From: a plasmid
Sequence record: NZ_CP037472.2
Strand: one strand, 5' to 3'
Length of the DNA: 64,000 nt
In this document: positions 1,745 through 17,076 of the stretch, one piece after another
How positions within the stretch are numbered: position 1 is the first letter of the stretch
How the letters are laid out: the number at the start of each line of letters is the position of its first letter
Program-made: the position numbers and the translations under genes
The notes under the pieces: generated by a model
What the model was told of the DNA's origin: nothing
What the model saw: only the letters and a program-made list of their open reading frames with translations
Database searches by the model: none

Positions 1745-2290
1745 ATGGGAGTAGAGGTTAATAAAAGGAATTTAGCTAAAGAAGTTACACCTGAAGAAAG
1801 AATATCTATTCACTATAATAAGCTTAAGGAAAAATTAAAAATTAATTTTCAAAAAGAAATTTTTTGTAAAATTGAGGCAATGAAGGTTTTAAAAGAGATT
1901 AAGGATAAAGAATACTATAAGCTTGATAATTATGCTAGTTTTGATGATTTTGCTAAGGATTATAGACTTGCAAGAACTCAAACATATAAATATTTAAAGA
2001 TAGCAACTGCAATTGAGGAAGGAATTGTAGAGGAAAAGTATGTTATTAACAATGGTATTAATAACACTATGTTTTTGATAAGAAATAAAGAAGGTGTTAG
2101 TATAAAGAAGTCCAAGCAAAATCCTTTGAGGCCTCTGAGATTTCAGCTTAAATGTCCTGATGCTTATGCATTTTATAAGCGAAATGCTAAGCTTACTAGC
2201 TTTCTTTTAGAGAAAGTTTTTTTAGATGAAAAAGAATTTTTATCTAAAATAATAAATCAATTTGATTCTTTAAAGAAGGTTAAAAAATAG
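1745..2290 (+). CDS. PF49-like plasmid partition/replication protein (putative ParB analogue)
   Basis: 181 aa basic protein directly downstream of PF32, the canonical Borrelia arrangement. RBS AAAGGAGGG lies 8 nt upstream. Confidence 0.55.
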   Translation: MGVEVNKRNLAKEVTPEERISIHYNKLKEKLKINFQKEIFCKIEAMKVLKEIKDKEYYKLDNYASFDDFAKDYRLARTQTYKYLKIATAIEEGIVEEKYVINNGINNTMFLIRNKEGVSIKKSKQNPLRPLRFQLKCPDAYAFYKRNAKLTSFLLEKVFLDEKEFLSKIINQFDSLKKVKK

Positions 2291-2598
2291 AATACTAGAA
2301 TTATGGTGTTGGATTTATTTCTAAAAATTTTTCAAAAATTAGTGGTATGAGTAGGACAAAGGTTTTAGAAATAGACCTAATAATTAATATCAAAATTTTT
2401 AACATTTTATTTGTATGAGTATAGTTTTATTATTTATTTAATAATAATTTGGTATTTAATAATTTTTTCTAGATAAGAAATTTAGATGAATAAAGGTTAA
2501 GTTTCAAGATAACTTTTTTTGATTTTAAAAAAATTAAAAAAATATTGAAAAAAATTTGCAAAATGTTTGAAATTGTTATATATTATAATAAGTACAGA

Positions 2599-2700
2599 TT
2601 GACATGCAATGTGTCACTCTTAATATAAGGACCTGTTACCTTAAAGGGTTTATTAGGGCCTTTGAGGCCAGAGTTTCTAATAAACCCTTTAATTTTTGTG
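2599..2700 (+). ncRNA. Candidate small RNA: sigma70-like promoter, 16-bp perfect hairpin and U-run
   Basis: TTGACA at 2599-2604, a 16-17 nt spacer, then TAATAT at 2621-2626. Perfect stem ttaaagggtttattag (2641-2656) pairs with ctaataaaccctttaa (2677-2692), with an inner GGCC/GGCC mini-stem. Followed immediately by TTTTTGTG. No ORF is present. Confidence 0.4.
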
Positions 2701-3225
2701 GCTCAACAGTCGTATTTTTATCAATTTTATGGGAATTATTATTATGTAAATAAAAAGCATAAAAAATATTTTGTTAGCTTTAATTTTTAGGTTTAATGCA
2801 TAAAAAAGTTTTTTTGGTAAGTTAAAAGGATTAGTGCCAATTTGAATAAATTGGGATTATAATTTCGAATTTATGGGTATTTAACTTGACATTAATATGA
2901 TAATATCTTAGTATTACACTTCCTAAAGATATATTTTATGGCATATAGTAATTATGCTGGTGGTATTAAGCTTTAAATTTATAATTTTTTATGTTTTATG
3001 TTATTAGTTACATTGGCATTGAAGTTGTTATCAGTTTATTATCATGATATTTTGTTTTAAAATGATTTTTAGTAATACTTTTCTCCTTTTTTATAGATAT
3101 TGGATCTTTACAGGGGGATGTTATCCAATATCTATTTTTATTGTATTTAAATTTTTTTCTATTTAACTTATTCTTAATTAATTTGAGCTTGTTTTTTTGT
3201 AAAAACTCGTTTACAATTTATTTAA

Positions 3226-3786
3226 ATGGTATTTAAAAATAGAGAATCGAAATATAATATTTTATTTGGGTCAAACTTAAGTATAGCTAATATTGCAAAG
3301 ATTATGGATGTTAGTGAGTCGACTGTTTTAAAGGCTAGGCTTAGTATTTTAGGGGAATTTGCAAGTAATATAGATAACACTGATACTACCTTTGTATCTT
3401 CTAGTGATACCGATTTAGATAGTCTTGCCAGAAGTGCAACAATTGAAGCTTACAAGCTTGAAGGGGAGCGAGATAGATTTTATAAAGAGTTTTATAGAAT
3501 TGCAAATTCTTATATTAACTCTCATTTTAAATATAAAGAGTTTAGTTTTCAATCTGCCTTTAAGAAATTAATTAATCTTAATGAAAAGATTTCAAGTTTA
3601 GAAAAGGAAATAAGTGGCAGCAATGATGCAAACTTATGTAGGAGACTTAGATTGAAATTACAGCATAAGATTTATAAGAGAAATCGAATGTCTAAAAATC
3701 TTATTTTAAATGATATGAAAGAAGATTATGAATGTTTGATGAAACTAAAGGAAATTTTTAAGTCTAAGGGCTTAAAGTTGGGGTAG
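3226..3786 (+). CDS. Phage terminase small subunit (putative, HTH-containing)
   Basis: 186 aa. N-terminal HTH-like segment SIANIAKIMDVSESTVLKARL. Stop is 2 nt before the large terminase start. Confidence 0.4.
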   Translation: MVFKNRESKYNILFGSNLSIANIAKIMDVSESTVLKARLSILGEFASNIDNTDTTFVSSSDTDLDSLARSATIEAYKLEGERDRFYKEFYRIANSYINSHFKYKEFSFQSAFKKLINLNEKISSLEKEISGSNDANLCRRLRLKLQHKIYKRNRMSKNLILNDMKEDYECLMKLKEIFKSKGLKLG

Positions 3787-3788
3787 TT

Positions 3789-5141
3789 TTGAAATTAAAT
3801 GATTCATCAGTTTTCATTAAGTTGCAGAAGAGATTTAAACAAAAATTTAATATTAATATTGCCAAGTTTGCAAAAGATCAAAATGACAAGATTAATTTTA
3901 AATTGTTTGAAGAGAGATATTTAACGCTTAAGCAAAGAGAAGTGTTGGATGATATAAATGATAATTTTTGCTCTAAATTGATCTTTAATGGTGGAATATC
4001 TAGTGGCAAGACATTTTTGGCCTCATATTTGCTTATTAAATTTTTGATTCAAAATCAGCATTGTTATCATAAAGATACTAATAATTTTATTGTGGGAAGT
4101 TCAATTGGTGCGTTACTTTCTAATACGCTTAAGCAGATAGAAAAGATCTGTCAGTTTTTAGATGTGGATTGTGTTTTAAAAGTTTCTCGTAGTATTTCAT
4201 GTACCATTGCAGGTCTGACACTTAATGTTTATGGTGGAAAGAACAGAGATGCTTTTTCAAAGATTAGGGGAAGTAATTCTGCTTTGGTGTATGTTAATGA
4301 AGCAACTTTAATGCATAAAGAGACTTTGCTTGAGGTAATGAAAAGGTTGAGGCAGAAGCCAGCTATTGTTATTTTTGATACTAATTCTGATCATCCTGCA
4401 CATTACTTTAAAACAGATTATATTGATAATAGAGATGTGTATAGAACATATAATTTTAGCATTTATGATAATCCCTTAAATTCAAGAGATTTTATTGAAA
4501 CTCAAGAAATGATTTATAAGAATTTATCTGCTTACAAAGCTAGAGTGATGCTTGGGCAATGGACAGTGAGTGTTGATGCGTGTTTTAATGAAGTTATCTT
4601 AAATGAAGATTATGTATTTAAGAGTCCAATTATGTATATTGATCCTGCTTTTTCAGTTGGTATGGATAATACTGCTATTTGTGTCTTTGAAAGAATGGGT
4701 GATAAGTATTATGCATATATTTATCAGGATAGGAAGCCTGTAAGTGATGATTCAATTCTTAATGCAATTAGTGTACTTGCAGAAAATTTTAATATTAATA
4801 CTCTTTATGTTGAAGACCGAGATAATACTGATGGACATGGATTTTTAACTAAGCTTATGGTATCTATTCGGCAAGGTATGAATCATTATTTTAAGATATC
4901 AGCAATTAAACCTTTAAGCAATAAGTTTGTACGGATATGTGCTTTAATACCTTTGTTTAATGCTCGCAGAATAGAGTTTTTAAAGATTATGGATAAAAAT
5001 GTAATAAATGATATTTATAGCTATAGCGGAGCCTTTAAGGGAAGAGATGATTGTCTTGATGTATTAAGTGCTTGTTATTTACTCTTAAATCTTGATCATA
5101 AAGACGGAATAAAACATTTTACCAAGAGCAGATATATTTAA
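3789..5141 (+). CDS. Phage terminase large subunit (PBSX/cp32 type)
   Basis: Walker A FNGGISSGKTF and Walker B-like VYVNEATLM. C-terminal RNaseH-like nuclease region (IDPAFSVGMDNTAICVF ... YVEDRDNTDGHG). 450 aa. Confidence 0.8.
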   Translation: MKLNDSSVFIKLQKRFKQKFNINIAKFAKDQNDKINFKLFEERYLTLKQREVLDDINDNFCSKLIFNGGISSGKTFLASYLLIKFLIQNQHCYHKDTNNFIVGSSIGALLSNTLKQIEKICQFLDVDCVLKVSRSISCTIAGLTLNVYGGKNRDAFSKIRGSNSALVYVNEATLMHKETLLEVMKRLRQKPAIVIFDTNSDHPAHYFKTDYIDNRDVYRTYNFSIYDNPLNSRDFIETQEMIYKNLSAYKARVMLGQWTVSVDACFNEVILNEDYVFKSPIMYIDPAFSVGMDNTAICVFERMGDKYYAYIYQDRKPVSDDSILNAISVLAENFNINTLYVEDRDNTDGHGFLTKLMVSIRQGMNHYFKISAIKPLSNKFVRICALIPLFNARRIEFLKIMDKNVINDIYSYSGAFKGRDDCLDVLSACYLLLNLDHKDGIKHFTKSRYI

Positions 5142-10604: not shown

Positions 10605-10894
10605 GGTGTTGAGATTTCATCTTATTTATTAAGTAGTGATTTTGTTTTTTAACAATTTACCCAAAAGCTTTTAAGAAGTTTTTAGGGTAAATTGTTTGTT
10701 TTTAAGGTTTAGTGTTGTTTAATGATTTAAATTTTTGTTTTTTAGTCAATAATCAATTTTAGAGATTTAGATTGTATTTAAATGAAATCAGTTTAATTTG
10801 CTTTAAGAGGCGTTTTGATCTGAGAGTTGATTAATGTTTTTTTAGAGGATAGACTTGGTTTATATATTCAAGCTTTATAAGGAGTATTTAAATT

Positions 10895-11383
10895 ATGCTA
10901 GTAAAGCAACTATTTTTAAGGATATTATTTATATTTAGTTTATTAACGCTAAATGGTGCTCTCCCCCCTAAAGAATCTGAAAAATTTACCATTCGTTATA
11001 TGAGCAATTACGATAGAGTACCTGAGGTTGAATTGGTTTTAACTAATGGAGGGAATTCATTAGTGATCAGGAATGATAACTATACTGGCTATTTAGACAC
11101 ATATGTTACTCTTAAGGATGGTTTTAAGCCTAATATAAAGACGTTAGCGTTATTTATAGGTAGTGGTGATATTCGTAATAGGGAGCATGTTAGGTGTTGT
11201 GATAATGATTATCTACTTTGTAAAGAGCAATGGGACAAATTGGTTATTAAAGCTAATGGTAGAGACTTGTGTTTTTATGTTGTTTGTCTTGAGGGGGAAA
11301 CTAATATTGAGAGAGAATATTACTTTAAAATTAGTGCAGCAAATTTGCGCAAATTTATTGATAGTTTAGTTGATTTTGTATAG
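10895..11383 (+). CDS. Secreted protein, paralog of 11589
   Basis: N-terminal signal; shared C-terminus ETNIEREYYFKISAANLRKFIDSL. Contains a C7 run at about 10951-10957. Confidence 0.5.
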   Translation: MLVKQLFLRILFIFSLLTLNGALPPKESEKFTIRYMSNYDRVPEVELVLTNGGNSLVIRNDNYTGYLDTYVTLKDGFKPNIKTLALFIGSGDIRNREHVRCCDNDYLLCKEQWDKLVIKANGRDLCFYVVCLEGETNIEREYYFKISAANLRKFIDSLVDFV

Positions 11384-11588
11384 CTAGTTTAGACAATTTT
11401 GATTAATCTAGTAAATCTTTATATATATCTAAAAGATATATTTTCTATGACTTTATTCATGTTTATTTTGTGAAAATTTAAAATCAGTTTGAATTATTCT
11501 CAGAACTATTTTAGGGGTTGATTAATATTTGTTTTAAGAATAGGCTGGATTTGTATGTTAATACTTTTAAAGAGGGGGGGTATTTAAT

Positions 11589-13690: not shown

Positions 13691-14893
13691 ATGTTATTTA
13701 AAAATAGTAGTAATGTTTTTGATAGTATTTTATTTAAAAAGCAATTAATCAATCCTATAGAATTGTACAGATATTCTTTATTTTTTAGAAATTATATAGA
13801 AAATGCCGTAGAGGATGCATTAAGGCCTGGTATTAAATTAGAACTTTTAAATGTTTCAGGATTTGATTTTAGTAATTTGCAATCTTTAAGCTTGGAGTTA
13901 TCAGAAGCACTTCTTGAGGCTATGATAAGTTATCGGTTTAATGGGGTTGGATATATTTTAATTAAGCCTAAAGTTTTAGATGAAGATTTAAGCAAAAGTG
14001 TTAATGATGAATTGCCGGTTGGGTTTCAATATTTGGACTATAAACGACTAAAAAATGATCGTAGTAGTGATTATTTAGAGTATTTGCAAGGAGATGGTAC
14101 ATCCATCATCATACACAAGAGTCGAGTAATAATCCATGAAAATTTTGATTATATACTTGGGGTACATGAGCCAGTTTATACTCAAAGCTTGCTTTTAGAT
14201 ATTTGCCTTTTAGAACAGATATATATAGAGATTGAAAAACGCATTGAACAATATAATTTTTTGTTTTATAAAGATGAACAGCTAGTTGAACTTATGCAGG
14301 CGTTACAAGATGCTAAAAATCAGGTTAGTACTCTTGGCACCAAAAGTAGGGGATTATTTTCTACATTTTTTCAAAATAATGATAATTTAAATACTAGCTT
14401 AGGCTCAATTGGATTTGAGCTTGATCGTTTACTTGAAAAGCTTAAGAGTGGTCTTGGTAATAATGGAATATTTTACAGTGCTGATTCGGATGCAAGTTTG
14501 CAGGTTGTGAAGTATGATCTTGTATTTTTAAGAGATGCATTTGAGCTTGTAAAGGCAAAGATAGGGGCTGATACTAAGGAACCATTGACTCGAAGTTTTA
14601 ATGAGCAGGTAAAGGGCTTAGGAAGTGATGGTAAGGGAGATAGAGCTAATTATATTGATTTCTTGCATACCGTTCAAAAGGCTGCTGCAAATGCAGTTAA
14701 TATTAAACTCAACAAGCACTACAGACTTAACATGTGTTTTAATGATTTAGTTATATTAAGTGATGAACAGAAATTAGATAGGGATATGAAATTACTTGAT
14801 GTGTATTCTAAATATTTAGAAATTATAAAACAAAATTCTTTAAATGGTGATGAGATAGAGATATTAAAGAGTAAATTAAATTTTTCATTTTAA
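13691..14893 (+). CDS. cp32-like late operon protein 1 (possibly portal; hypothetical)
   Basis: 400 aa first gene of a 16-gene co-directional, overlapping operon downstream of the terminase. Identity is inferred only from size and position. Confidence 0.4.
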   Translation: MLFKNSSNVFDSILFKKQLINPIELYRYSLFFRNYIENAVEDALRPGIKLELLNVSGFDFSNLQSLSLELSEALLEAMISYRFNGVGYILIKPKVLDEDLSKSVNDELPVGFQYLDYKRLKNDRSSDYLEYLQGDGTSIIIHKSRVIIHENFDYILGVHEPVYTQSLLLDICLLEQIYIEIEKRIEQYNFLFYKDEQLVELMQALQDAKNQVSTLGTKSRGLFSTFFQNNDNLNTSLGSIGFELDRLLEKLKSGLGNNGIFYSADSDASLQVVKYDLVFLRDAFELVKAKIGADTKEPLTRSFNEQVKGLGSDGKGDRANYIDFLHTVQKAAANAVNIKLNKHYRLNMCFNDLVILSDEQKLDRDMKLLDVYSKYLEIIKQNSLNGDEIEILKSKLNFSF

Positions 14894-14905
14894 GGAGGTT
14901 GTTTA

Positions 14906-15427
14906 GTGGAAAACCAAGCAGAAGCAACTGGTGTTGATGCTACTGAACTTAATAAAGATGACAATCTTAATCAGATTGATAATGGTGATGGGGATAATGA
15001 TAAGTTACTCACTCGAGCTGTTTGGATAACTAGGCTTGCAGATGATAATTTAAATTTAAGTTATAGTACACAAGAACTCTTAAGTGTTGGACATTCATTA
15101 GTTGAAGTTTTAGATATTCAAGCATGTGAGCTTATAAAAAAGTATGTTGATGAGAAGCAAATATTGGCAGTTGCCGGTAATATTGATATTTTGAAATTGA
15201 ATGCTAATATTAAAGATATCTTATTAAGACTTGCAAGTGCAAATATTAATTCATTTAAAAATAGTAATAATTCATATAGCTTAATGGCCCTTAATAAAGG
15301 CAATCTTAAAGAAATGTTAAATTTGCGGAGCAAAAACATTGCAATAAAGGATTATAAAGACTTGAGGCAAGCAATGCTTAATGAGTGGATGCAAATTAAG
15401 CAAGAATTTTATAGTATTAAATCTTAA
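14906..15427 (+). CDS. cp32-like late operon protein 2 (hypothetical)
   Basis: GTG start 7 nt after AAGGAGG; 12-nt gap from the previous gene. Confidence 0.45.
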   Translation: MENQAEATGVDATELNKDDNLNQIDNGDGDNDKLLTRAVWITRLADDNLNLSYSTQELLSVGHSLVEVLDIQACELIKKYVDEKQILAVAGNIDILKLNANIKDILLRLASANINSFKNSNNSYSLMALNKGNLKEMLNLRSKNIAIKDYKDLRQAMLNEWMQIKQEFYSIKS

Positions 15428-16146: not shown

Positions 16147-17076
16147 TTGAGTGAAAATTTATTTAATAATGATGAATTTATAAATGTTATTAGGGAGTCT
16201 TTATCCCTTGAGAGTCCAATTCCTGAGTATTATCATTTTTTTGATAATGGGCAAATAGAGAGCAGCGATGCGTCATTTGCAAGTGAGAGAGTTGTAAAGT
16301 GGCATTCAAGTATAGCAGATCTTCCAACGCTTAAGGTTAACGATTTTAGTACAGTTTCTGCCATTAAGTTTAAAAGACAGGTAGTTTTCGTAAATTATTT
16401 GCCGTTTCAGTATGCCTTTACGTATTATGCACCTGATGGTAAATTTGATATTCAGTCAGTGAATAACATTAATATGAAGGAGGGACTTCGGTATTCGTTA
16501 AATGAAATACATAAGTTGCTCAGTGTGCATTACTTAAGAGGTGGTCTTTGCTTTCCTGGAGAAGAGAAAAATAGGCGTACTCTTCTTGTTGATGAATCTA
16601 ATCGGGAGACTATGTATGGTCTGTTGAATATTCCAGGACAAATAGATGCAACTGTCAATATTATTAATAATGCAGATTTGTTGAGGGTTTGCCGTGATAA
16701 AGTGGGTCAAATTAATTTAGAAGATGAGAGAAGAGTTCCTTTTAAAGTATTAACAACTCCTAAAATTAAGGCGTTATTGCTTGAAAGGTTGCTTAATAAT
16801 CATTATTCATACAAGGATATGTTATTTGACATTTTAAGAGCAATAAATAATGATGCTGATATTCAACTTGAGACTACAAATTTATTGTTAGATGAGATGT
16901 TAATTTATCCAAGGAGTTCTAAACTTGTGTTATTAAAAGATGGGCATCCTCCAATTTTAAATGCGTATACACAGATGTCAAGCAGTAATTTTAGAACTAG
17001 TTTTCTAGATTTTTCTATTGGCACTATTCTTGCAAGTGAAAATTCGATACTTAGACTTAAAATAGAGTGGAGTTAA
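16147..17076 (+). CDS. cp32-like late operon protein 4 (hypothetical; major structural candidate)
   Basis: RBS AAGGAGAT upstream; 309 aa; operon context. Confidence 0.45.
   Translation: MSENLFNNDEFINVIRESLSLESPIPEYYHFFDNGQIESSDASFASERVVKWHSSIADLPTLKVNDFSTVSAIKFKRQVVFVNYLPFQYAFTYYAPDGKFDIQSVNNINMKEGLRYSLNEIHKLLSVHYLRGGLCFPGEEKNRRTLLVDESNRETMYGLLNIPGQIDATVNIINNADLLRVCRDKVGQINLEDERRVPFKVLTTPKIKALLLERLLNNHYSYKDMLFDILRAINNDADIQLETTNLLLDEMLIYPRSSKLVLLKDGHPPILNAYTQMSSSNFRTSFLDFSIGTILASENSILRLKIEWS

Follow-up and report, generated by a model that had tools for sequence, protein, structure and literature searches.

A plus-strand small RNA downstream of PF49 on a Borrelia plasmid, orthologous to SR0891, with a predicted anti-Shine-Dalgarno match to PF57/62

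Behind the PF49 gene in a 64,000-nucleotide stretch of plasmid DNA (sequence record NZ_CP037472.2; this whole stretch is called the window, and coordinates refer to it unless another replicon or locus is named) lies a non-coding element that may bear on plasmid maintenance in Borrelia, where as many as ~20 related plasmids, linear and circular, coexist at set copy numbers and stay mutually compatible. PF49 is the last gene of a PF57/62-PF50-PF32-PF49 replication/partition cassette. It ends at 2290, and the next conserved open reading frame (ORF) begins at 3226, so that the ORF-free placement beside these genes given in the initial annotation is correct. There, at 2599-2700, a promoter, a perfect hairpin and a U-run had been drawn as a complete minimal transcription unit, with copy control, incompatibility or a partition site as possible roles. 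What does the element encode, and on what would its product act? It is near-certain that the element is a bona fide small RNA (sRNA) gene, the ortholog of Borrelia burgdorferi SR0891. The best overall explanation, to which a probability of about 0.6 is attached, is that its product is a trans-encoded RNA directed against the Shine-Dalgarno (SD) sequence of the cassette's own PF57/62 gene, repressing translation and thereby controlling plasmid copy number. The features of the element are as follows.

2556..2561, plus strand: predicted -35 hexamer TTGCAA, from a promoter scan (TTGCAA-17-TATATT)
2579..2584, plus strand: -10 hexamer TATATT (TATACT in Lyme species)
2592..2699, plus strand: predicted primary transcript of ~108 nt, SR0891 ortholog
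2592-2597 with 2633-2639, plus strand: helix P1, which fits all variation
2599..2626, plus strand: TTGACA-16-TAATAT, overlying P2 and the seed, inside the RNA
2601..2615, plus strand: helix P2, the 5' hairpin GACAU-GCAAU-GUGUC, paired in 100% of alignment cells
2616..2629, plus strand: seed ACUCUUAAUAUAAG, invariant and mostly single-stranded, the predicted anti-SD segment
2641..2692, plus strand: long hairpin P3, with a perfect 16-bp lower stem and a variable upper stem
2693..2700, plus strand: U-run TTTTTGTG, kept in most species

The element is matched in B. burgdorferi B31 at lp54 14891-15034 (80.5% identity over 144 nt, E = 6e-26), inside SR0891 (lp54 14845-15060, plus strand, intergenic between bba21 and bba22), which is among the 13 intergenic sRNAs confirmed by Northern blot by Popitsch et al. 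(2017; PMC5216591). SR0891 is regulated by RelBbu ('Rel downregulated', log2 value 3.08) according to Drecktrah et al. (2018; PMC6041397), whose Northern oligonucleotide is the reverse complement of GGTACAGACTGACACGCAATGTGTCGCTCTTAATATAAGGACCTGTTACCTTAAAGGG; Northern blots of SR0891 thus come from two studies, with a probe spanning the 5' domain. The same element had been described in silico in three Lyme species as 'Sequence #5' by Delihas (2009; PMC2674063), with a perfect inverted repeat, three stem-loops and an RNAz z-score of -6.04, and with the comment that more homologs were needed. The window RNA and SR0891 agree in post-PF49 position, strand, the three helices and a near-identical 5' domain running from GTACAG to GGGTTTATT; they differ in the upper part of the hairpin, which in B31 extends to a 26-bp perfect palindrome (52 bp), in the distance from PF49, and in that the SR0891 locus has a BBA22-like small ORF with a duplicate target, which the window lacks. 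Expression as a discrete small RNA is documented for B. burgdorferi only, by Northern blot and RNA-seq. The initial annotation is supported in its proposal of a non-coding RNA gene on the plus strand beside the replication/partition cassette. In the literature found no function is assigned to SR0891, although unpublished or subscription-only reports could have escaped the search. The window RNA is thus the relapsing-fever-clade ortholog of an already-detected Lyme sRNA.

The distribution of the element goes well beyond these two plasmids. A block of ~165 nt (window ~2534-2698) occurs at exactly one place in each of 110 PLSDB plasmids, at 84-95% identity in relapsing-fever megaplasmids and ~80% in lp54 of every Lyme-group species. 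Every Borreliaceae species examined has one copy per genome, after PF49 of the lp54/megaplasmid/lp72 lineage, and in every locus fetched the element lies downstream of PF49 on the same strand, in unchanged synteny, with flanks that are unalignable between groups. The spacer between PF49 and the element is ~300 nt long and unconserved in relapsing-fever species, whereas in Lyme lp54 8 nt separate the stop codon from the element. Near-invariant conservation begins abruptly at GTACAG (2592) and continues to GGGTTTATT (2654), ~60 nt that are almost unchanged across Lyme, relapsing-fever and reptile-associated Borrelia and differ from B31 at 3 positions. A lack of conservation in related plasmids would have refuted the initial annotation, and the opposite is seen: few non-coding stretches of these plasmids are as strongly conserved. 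A pattern scan of a genome collection found the 5' motif in some Borreliella lp54 and cp26 records, once each, plus ~14 chance matches; B. burgdorferi, B. afzelii, B. garinii and relapsing-fever records were absent from its output, and those orthologs were taken from PLSDB, whose plasmids contain the pattern. Rfam 15 applied to 2200-3400 gave no family, only two chance microRNA-precursor matches (E = 3.8-6.3; best score 17.3 bits, against gathering thresholds of 83-100), and a phage database search gave no match. Whatever its mechanism, the element has a good claim to be treated as a new RNA family covering both genera. The absence of coding capacity is confirmed: the sole ORF across the element (2604-2753) has no ATG in B. 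burgdorferi, where ATG is replaced by ACG, and its frame is unconserved, so that a small-protein reading was rejected.

Is it the RNA or the DNA that is conserved? Structure was evaluated in a 25-species alignment (A2) comprising 35 pairs in three helices, or 875 cells. Standard pairs occupy 97.5% of the cells; sliding the partners lowers this to 52% or less. Seven pairs have changed on both sides, and the observed values were reached by none of 500 shuffles. Variation in P2 comprises A-U to G-C in Borrelia sp. RT5S, alternation of C-G with U·G, and C-G to G-C in a cp26 paralog described below; this helix may extend by AGA(2596-2598)/UCU(2618-2620). P3 has 24 pairs, with 96% of cells paired and compensatory changes in six pairs, among them G-C to A-U in Candidatus B. 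fainii and A-U to G-C in RT5S, and further compensation is seen as U-A to C-G in B. turcica and as A-U to G-C in B. recurrentis and all Lyme species. RNAalifold independently finds P2 and P3 and favours a four-pair extension of P2 over P1; both fit the variation. The wobble cells comprise 76 G·U pairs when read on the plus strand and no A·C, which indicates selection on a plus-strand RNA and not on a DNA palindrome. As annotated, a perfect 16-bp inverted repeat (2641-2656/2677-2692) forms a 52-nt hairpin followed by a T-run at 2693-2700, and folding supports it: the hairpin has a predicted energy of -28.7 kcal/mol (z = -3.7 against shuffles), and the full 108-nt RNA has z = -4.5. The inner GGCC mini-stem, on the other hand, is unconserved in relatives, where the conserved upper stem is CUUUG/CAGAG.

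The start of the RNA is indicated by a paralog. SR0961, encoded between bbb13 (the PF49 gene of cp26) and bbb14, shares the 5' motif and was noticed via its Northern probe (cp26 AGAUUGAGAUGCAAUGUCUCGCUCUU, lp54 AGACUGACACGCAAUGUGUCGCUCUU); the motif common to both paralogs at the transcript start is AGAyUGAsAyGCAAUGUsUCGCUCUU. SR0961 resembles the window RNA in lying downstream of PF49 and in its layout of 5' hairpin, unpaired stretch and terminator, but it belongs to the cp26 lineage, and its seed after GCUCUU and its terminator are different. Petroni et al. (2023; PMC10319736) mapped SR0961-S to 10739-10816. Upstream of the start at 10739 stands a TTTACA/TATAAT promoter, and GAUUGAG comes 4 nt after that start; alignment with SR0961-S places the start of the window RNA within GTACAG. 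G2592 is the eighth base after the -10 hexamer, the same spacing as at 10739. Furthermore, TTTGCAAAA, which holds the -35 hexamer TTGCAA, is invariant in 27 lp54-type loci of Lyme, relapsing-fever and reptile Borrelia, and TTGCAA and TATATT/TATACT are conserved at 17-nt spacing. Because conservation, covariation and the mapped start of the paralog converge on this position, the RNA is predicted most likely to start near G2592, from a sigma-70-type promoter TTGCAA(2556)-17-TATATT(2584), and its span would most likely be 2592 to 2699. Orthologs of SR0961 itself, with 84-87% identity, occur on plasmids of relapsing-fever and reptile Borrelia on which the telomere resolvase gene is also found (L058 4001-4123, which is B. 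miyamotoi lp41; L059, L060), and their occurrence in both groups implies that both paralogous sRNAs are older than the split of the two genera.

On what would such an RNA act? The seed forms 14 contiguous pairs, 13 Watson-Crick and one G·U, with CUUAUAUUAGGAGU, which precedes the start codon of the lp54-type PF57/62 gene by 5-7 nt, in its translation-initiation region (TIR). In the same strain this target is found at L066 2843-2857, 767 nt upstream of window position 1. Among B31, B. tanukii, B. miyamotoi, B. hermsii, B. turcica and RT5S the flanking bases vary, but the target island TACTTATATTAGGAGTA does not. Other plasmid types show the same relation with different sequences. The strongest duplex of SR0961-S on its own cassette is at the SD of BBB10, the PF57/62 gene of cp26 (GCUCUUGUUGUUUGAUU/AGAUCAAACGAUAGGAGC, 17 bp), and SR0793, which is Northern-validated and starts 32 nt after PF49 of lp28-3, contains UCUCCGUGUUCAGU, which pairs with ACUGAACAUGGAGA at the SD of BBH26 (PF57/62). 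When the 109 annotated TIRs of B31 lp54, cp26 and lp28-3 were ranked, SR0891, SR0961-S and SR0793 each placed their own PF57/62 gene first, and a non-cognate PF57/62 gene was among the best six TIRs for none of the three. The window RNA likewise ranked PF57/62 best against the TIRs of 56 long window ORFs. In a reverse, annotation-free test each PF57/62 TIR was compared with its whole plasmid on both strands; the top non-self site was SR0961 on cp26, SR0793 on lp28-3 and, on lp25, 11194-11226 (minus strand), inside the Northern-validated SR0750 (11188-11253), ~270 nt downstream of PF49. Among cp26-type orthologs (B. miyamotoi, B. hermsii, RT1S) an sRNA change of G to A is matched by a target change of C to U, and three target changes of A to G stay wobble-compatible, with one U·U mismatch in B. 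hermsii. A scan of whole-sRNA duplexes against 50-nt windows was uninformative, giving -25 to -37 kcal/mol everywhere from the long A/U-rich hairpin arms.

The mechanism proposed from these matches is as follows. The RNA would present a 5' stem-loop (2601-2615), the mostly unpaired ACUCUUAAUAUAAG (2616-2629) and a hairpin with U-run (2641-2699). Its seed would pair with CUUAUAUUAGGAGU at the SD of PF57/62 (a 'plasmid maintenance protein', Borrelia_orfA), the gene that heads the same cassette 3.3 kb upstream, and the pairing would block ribosome binding. More plasmid copies would then yield more RNA and less replication protein, a negative feedback on copy number, and a plasmid-type-specific seed could add to incompatibility. 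The copy-control or incompatibility role suggested in the initial annotation thus gains computational support, from the complementarity of the seed to the cognate PF57/62 SD region and from the three other plasmid types that are alike. Extension of the idea to Borrelia replicons in general, with a trans-encoded sRNA just after PF49 whose seed is directed against the SD of the same plasmid's PF57/62, stands at about even odds; such RNAs would be the missing copy-number controllers and, since plasmid types have different seeds and targets, also compatibility determinants among 10-20 coexisting plasmids. Its proposed members are SR0891 and the window RNA (lp54/lp72/megaplasmid), SR0961 (cp26-type), SR0793 (lp28-3) and SR0750 (lp25). 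As a rule for all plasmid types it was rejected. It fails on lp17, cp32-1, lp28-2 and lp36, and so either the rule is not universal or the criterion overlooks some cases.

Several observations weigh against the proposed control of PF57/62. The lp54-type duplex is A/U-rich and modest, at about -17.5 to -19.8 kcal/mol, and the lead of PF57/62 over the next TIR is narrow (-19.7 vs -18.0 in B31, -19.8 vs -19.6 in the window). Among 33,312 windows on lp54 the duplex comes 7th, and in the 64 kb its score is equalled or surpassed by 11 of 296 SD-bearing pseudo-TIRs. Nor is the match unique: the 64 kb hold four sites with 14 or more pairs in a row if G·U is allowed. Within the lp54-type ortholog group no covariation of seed and target is seen, both partners being invariant. 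The TIR scan found no PF49-downstream top match on lp17, cp32-1, lp28-2 or lp36. The ~60 nt of invariance go well beyond what a 14-nt seed requires, and extra constraints, from a protein partner or from other targets, must exist. Two points concern the 3' end: the U-run is absent in B. anserina, which has GTGTAAAAAGG there, and the dominant 3' end mapped in B31 lies away from the U-run and has a Rho score above 12. Finally, no experiment was found that connects one of these sRNAs with PF57/62 or with copy number.

An alternative is that the RNA acts in trans on main targets elsewhere, on the chromosome or other plasmids, or binds or sequesters a protein, the match to PF57/62 being coincidental. 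Such an RNA could account for an invariant stretch larger than the seed, for regulation by RelBbu with a log2 change of about 3 and for duplex energies that are only marginally best, and in Lyme species there is a second, near-identical target at the BBA22 TIR. It is nevertheless unlikely, since coincidence does not explain why the relation between a PF49-downstream sRNA and the PF57/62 SD recurs on cp26, lp28-3 and lp25 with different sequences, why a compensatory change is found in cp26-type orthologs, or why the target island is invariant amid variable flanks.

The BBA22 match is an observation in its own right. BBA22 (52 aa, small and hydrophobic) is encoded ~190 nt after the sRNA, and its ribosome-binding region AACTTATATTAGGGGTTAAGATG nearly duplicates the target at BBA18. 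The duplicate lies at L001 4239-4253 (B31 lp54 15129-15143) and has equivalents in 12 Lyme-group loci; in Lyme species SR0891 may therefore act on a second target close by. Neither the window nor the relapsing-fever loci have a counterpart, and a type I toxin-antitoxin reading, with BBA22 as toxin, was set aside as applicable to Lyme species at most. A further sequence, ACTCCTAATATAAGT, is a perfect complement of the BBA18 SD island. It lies ~187 nt upstream of BBA18 on the plus strand, at L001 674-688 (B31 lp54 11564-11578) and also at L003 486-500, under the minus-strand sRNA SR0887, which would thus contain the target sequence itself and might serve as a decoy; a version with two mismatches is found at similar distance in B. 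hermsii. On two of the plasmids that do not follow the rule, other arrangements were seen. On lp36 a tidy promoter-plus-terminator unit stands right after PF49 (L065 ~16900-17000), PF49 being divergent from PF57, with no clear pairing to the PF57 ribosome-binding region, and on cp32-1 a 12-13-bp anti-TIR match lies ~220 nt upstream of PF57 on the opposite strand (L063 18877-18909, minus).

Small RNAs that control plasmid copy number are familiar from other bacteria. In the repABC plasmids of alpha-proteobacteria a small RNA located by the parB-like gene of the partition/replication cassette, the counter-transcript RNA (ctRNA), represses the initiator and is an incompatibility determinant; it is a cis-antisense RNA that overlaps the repC leader on the opposite strand. 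CopA/CopT of R1 and RNAII of pMV158 are fully complementary, cis-encoded antisense RNAs that block translation of rep. CopA and RNAII are abundant and plasmid-encoded, with a stem-loop and single-stranded tail acting on the initiator TIR and a terminator hairpin. The window RNA has the complementarity to the initiator TIR that marks such antisense RNAs, 14 bp across the SD of PF57/62, the top-ranked TIR by a narrow margin, but it is not a counter-transcript, being encoded on the same strand as PF57/62 and ~3.3 kb downstream; the Borrelia RNAs would differ from ctRNA in being trans-encoded, with partial complementarity of 14-17 nt. The window RNA is therefore likened to ctRNA, CopA and RNAII in action and is not placed in those families. 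In Borrelia the bbb10-13 region confers replication and incompatibility, and incompatibility has been mapped to whole PF cassettes only; a 2022 paper calls the regulation of Borrelia plasmid copy number and compatibility 'largely unknown'. If control of PF57/62 by these RNAs were true, the question of plasmid maintenance would become directly testable via seed/target pairing (seed segment AAUAUAAG, example substitution AAUCGAAG), some of the most abundant and most conserved sRNAs of Lyme and relapsing-fever spirochetes would acquire a function, and the design of stable shuttle vectors or plasmid-curing tools could be aided.

Is the RNA the transcript first drawn here? The initial annotation took TTGACA and TAATAT as the promoter, which would give a ~65-nt RNA starting near 2633 and consisting mostly of the big hairpin. 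Both hexamers are present (2599-2604 and 2621-2626), although the spacer between them counts 16 nt and not 17; they are good (10/12) and conserved (CTGACA in Lyme species), and with two start sites known for its paralog SR0961 the RNA could conceivably have a further start inside it. However, the hexamers overlap the P2 stem and the seed, where conservation and covariation are those of an RNA, and the conservation boundary is at 2592, not 2633. The SR0891 Northern probe covers GGTACAG...AAAGGG, exactly the TTGACA-TAATAT stretch, and the RNA detected thus contains the supposed -35, spacer and -10. Moreover, promoter-like matches in this A+T-rich intergenic region are at chance level (11 found, 9.9 expected from shuffles). 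The short transcript is accordingly quite improbable. The ~108-nt RNA, from a promoter ~40 nt further upstream, replaces it, and the transcription unit as first drawn was not complete.

The 3' end leads to a second alternative, that the element does no more than form the 3' untranslated region (UTR) and intrinsic terminator of the PF57-PF50-PF32-PF49 operon and is otherwise without function. Its position after PF49 on the same strand, only 8 nt past the stop codon in Lyme lp54, is what such a region would have; the SR0891 interval begins inside bba21, and in Petroni et al. (2023; PMC10319736) SR0961 has two start sites and shares its 3' end with bbb13. Supplementary Data 5 of that paper gives a 3' end at lp54 14989 (plus strand) with 9.6e6 reads, orders of magnitude over the other entries examined in that table, and lists no other 3' end within 200 nt upstream of bba22. 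With an intrinsic-terminator score of 1.96 this end falls short of the threshold of 3.0, and its Rho scores are above 12. Position 14989 (L001 4099) lies inside the 5' arm of the big hairpin and is homologous, by alignment only, to window 2653. This points to a processed long stem and not to a transcript ending in the U-run: the 16-26-bp stem may be cleaved, possibly by RNase III, leaving a very abundant ~62-nt core in B. burgdorferi; by analogy the window RNA would be trimmed to ~2592-2653. The features of an intrinsic terminator, stem and U5, are present in the window, but the loop is too big for a simple terminator scan, which makes no call. P3 is probably both terminator and processing substrate, and it probably also ends read-through from PF49, which would place the anti-SD element on the operon's own 3' end. 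A mere 3' UTR would leave unexplained the invariant 50-nt 5' domain with its own conserved promoter and the 300-nt unconserved spacer of relapsing-fever species. It would not explain the abundance either (9.6e6 reads for the 3' end; the DESeq2 base mean of bba21, a different measure, is 519), and it sits poorly with the low B31 terminator score and the missing scan call. An operon tail alone is thus as doubtful as the short transcript, and the preferred reading remains a discrete sRNA with its own promoter.

A DNA element (a centromere-like partition site, as also proposed initially, a replication origin or a cruciform) is very improbable even though the locus adjoins par/rep genes, B31 has a 52-bp perfect palindrome and P2 is itself a short palindrome, because selection for DNA symmetry would not yield wobble cells that are all plus-strand G·U, the motif is single-copy with no repeats in the 64 kb, and an abundant discrete RNA is detected from the same strand in B. 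burgdorferi.

The window opens inside the cassette, whose genes are arranged as follows.

1-360: C-terminus of the PF57/62 protein (Pfam Borrelia_orfA)
392-958: PF50 (DUF226)
934-1689: PF32 (ParA)
1745-2290, plus strand: PF49 (Pfam Plasmid_parti, E = 8.9e-34), followed by the RNA

After the 935 bp without conserved ORFs, 3226-5141 holds a 186-aa ORF without Pfam match and then a phage-type large terminase, in the order found on lp54 (BBA30/BBA31) and on relapsing-fever megaplasmids. By this arrangement the replicon has prophage-derived genes beside its maintenance genes. Taken in full, the intergenic region has a conserved counterpart in B. miyamotoi lp72 alone (94-96% identity), which identifies the window replicon as a B. 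miyamotoi-type lp72, and a Logan contig from SRR7989215 is identical over 3 kb. In the intergenic part that is conserved within B. miyamotoi only, a second strong promoter-like match, TTGACA-17-TAGTAT (10/12), is present at 2886-2914.

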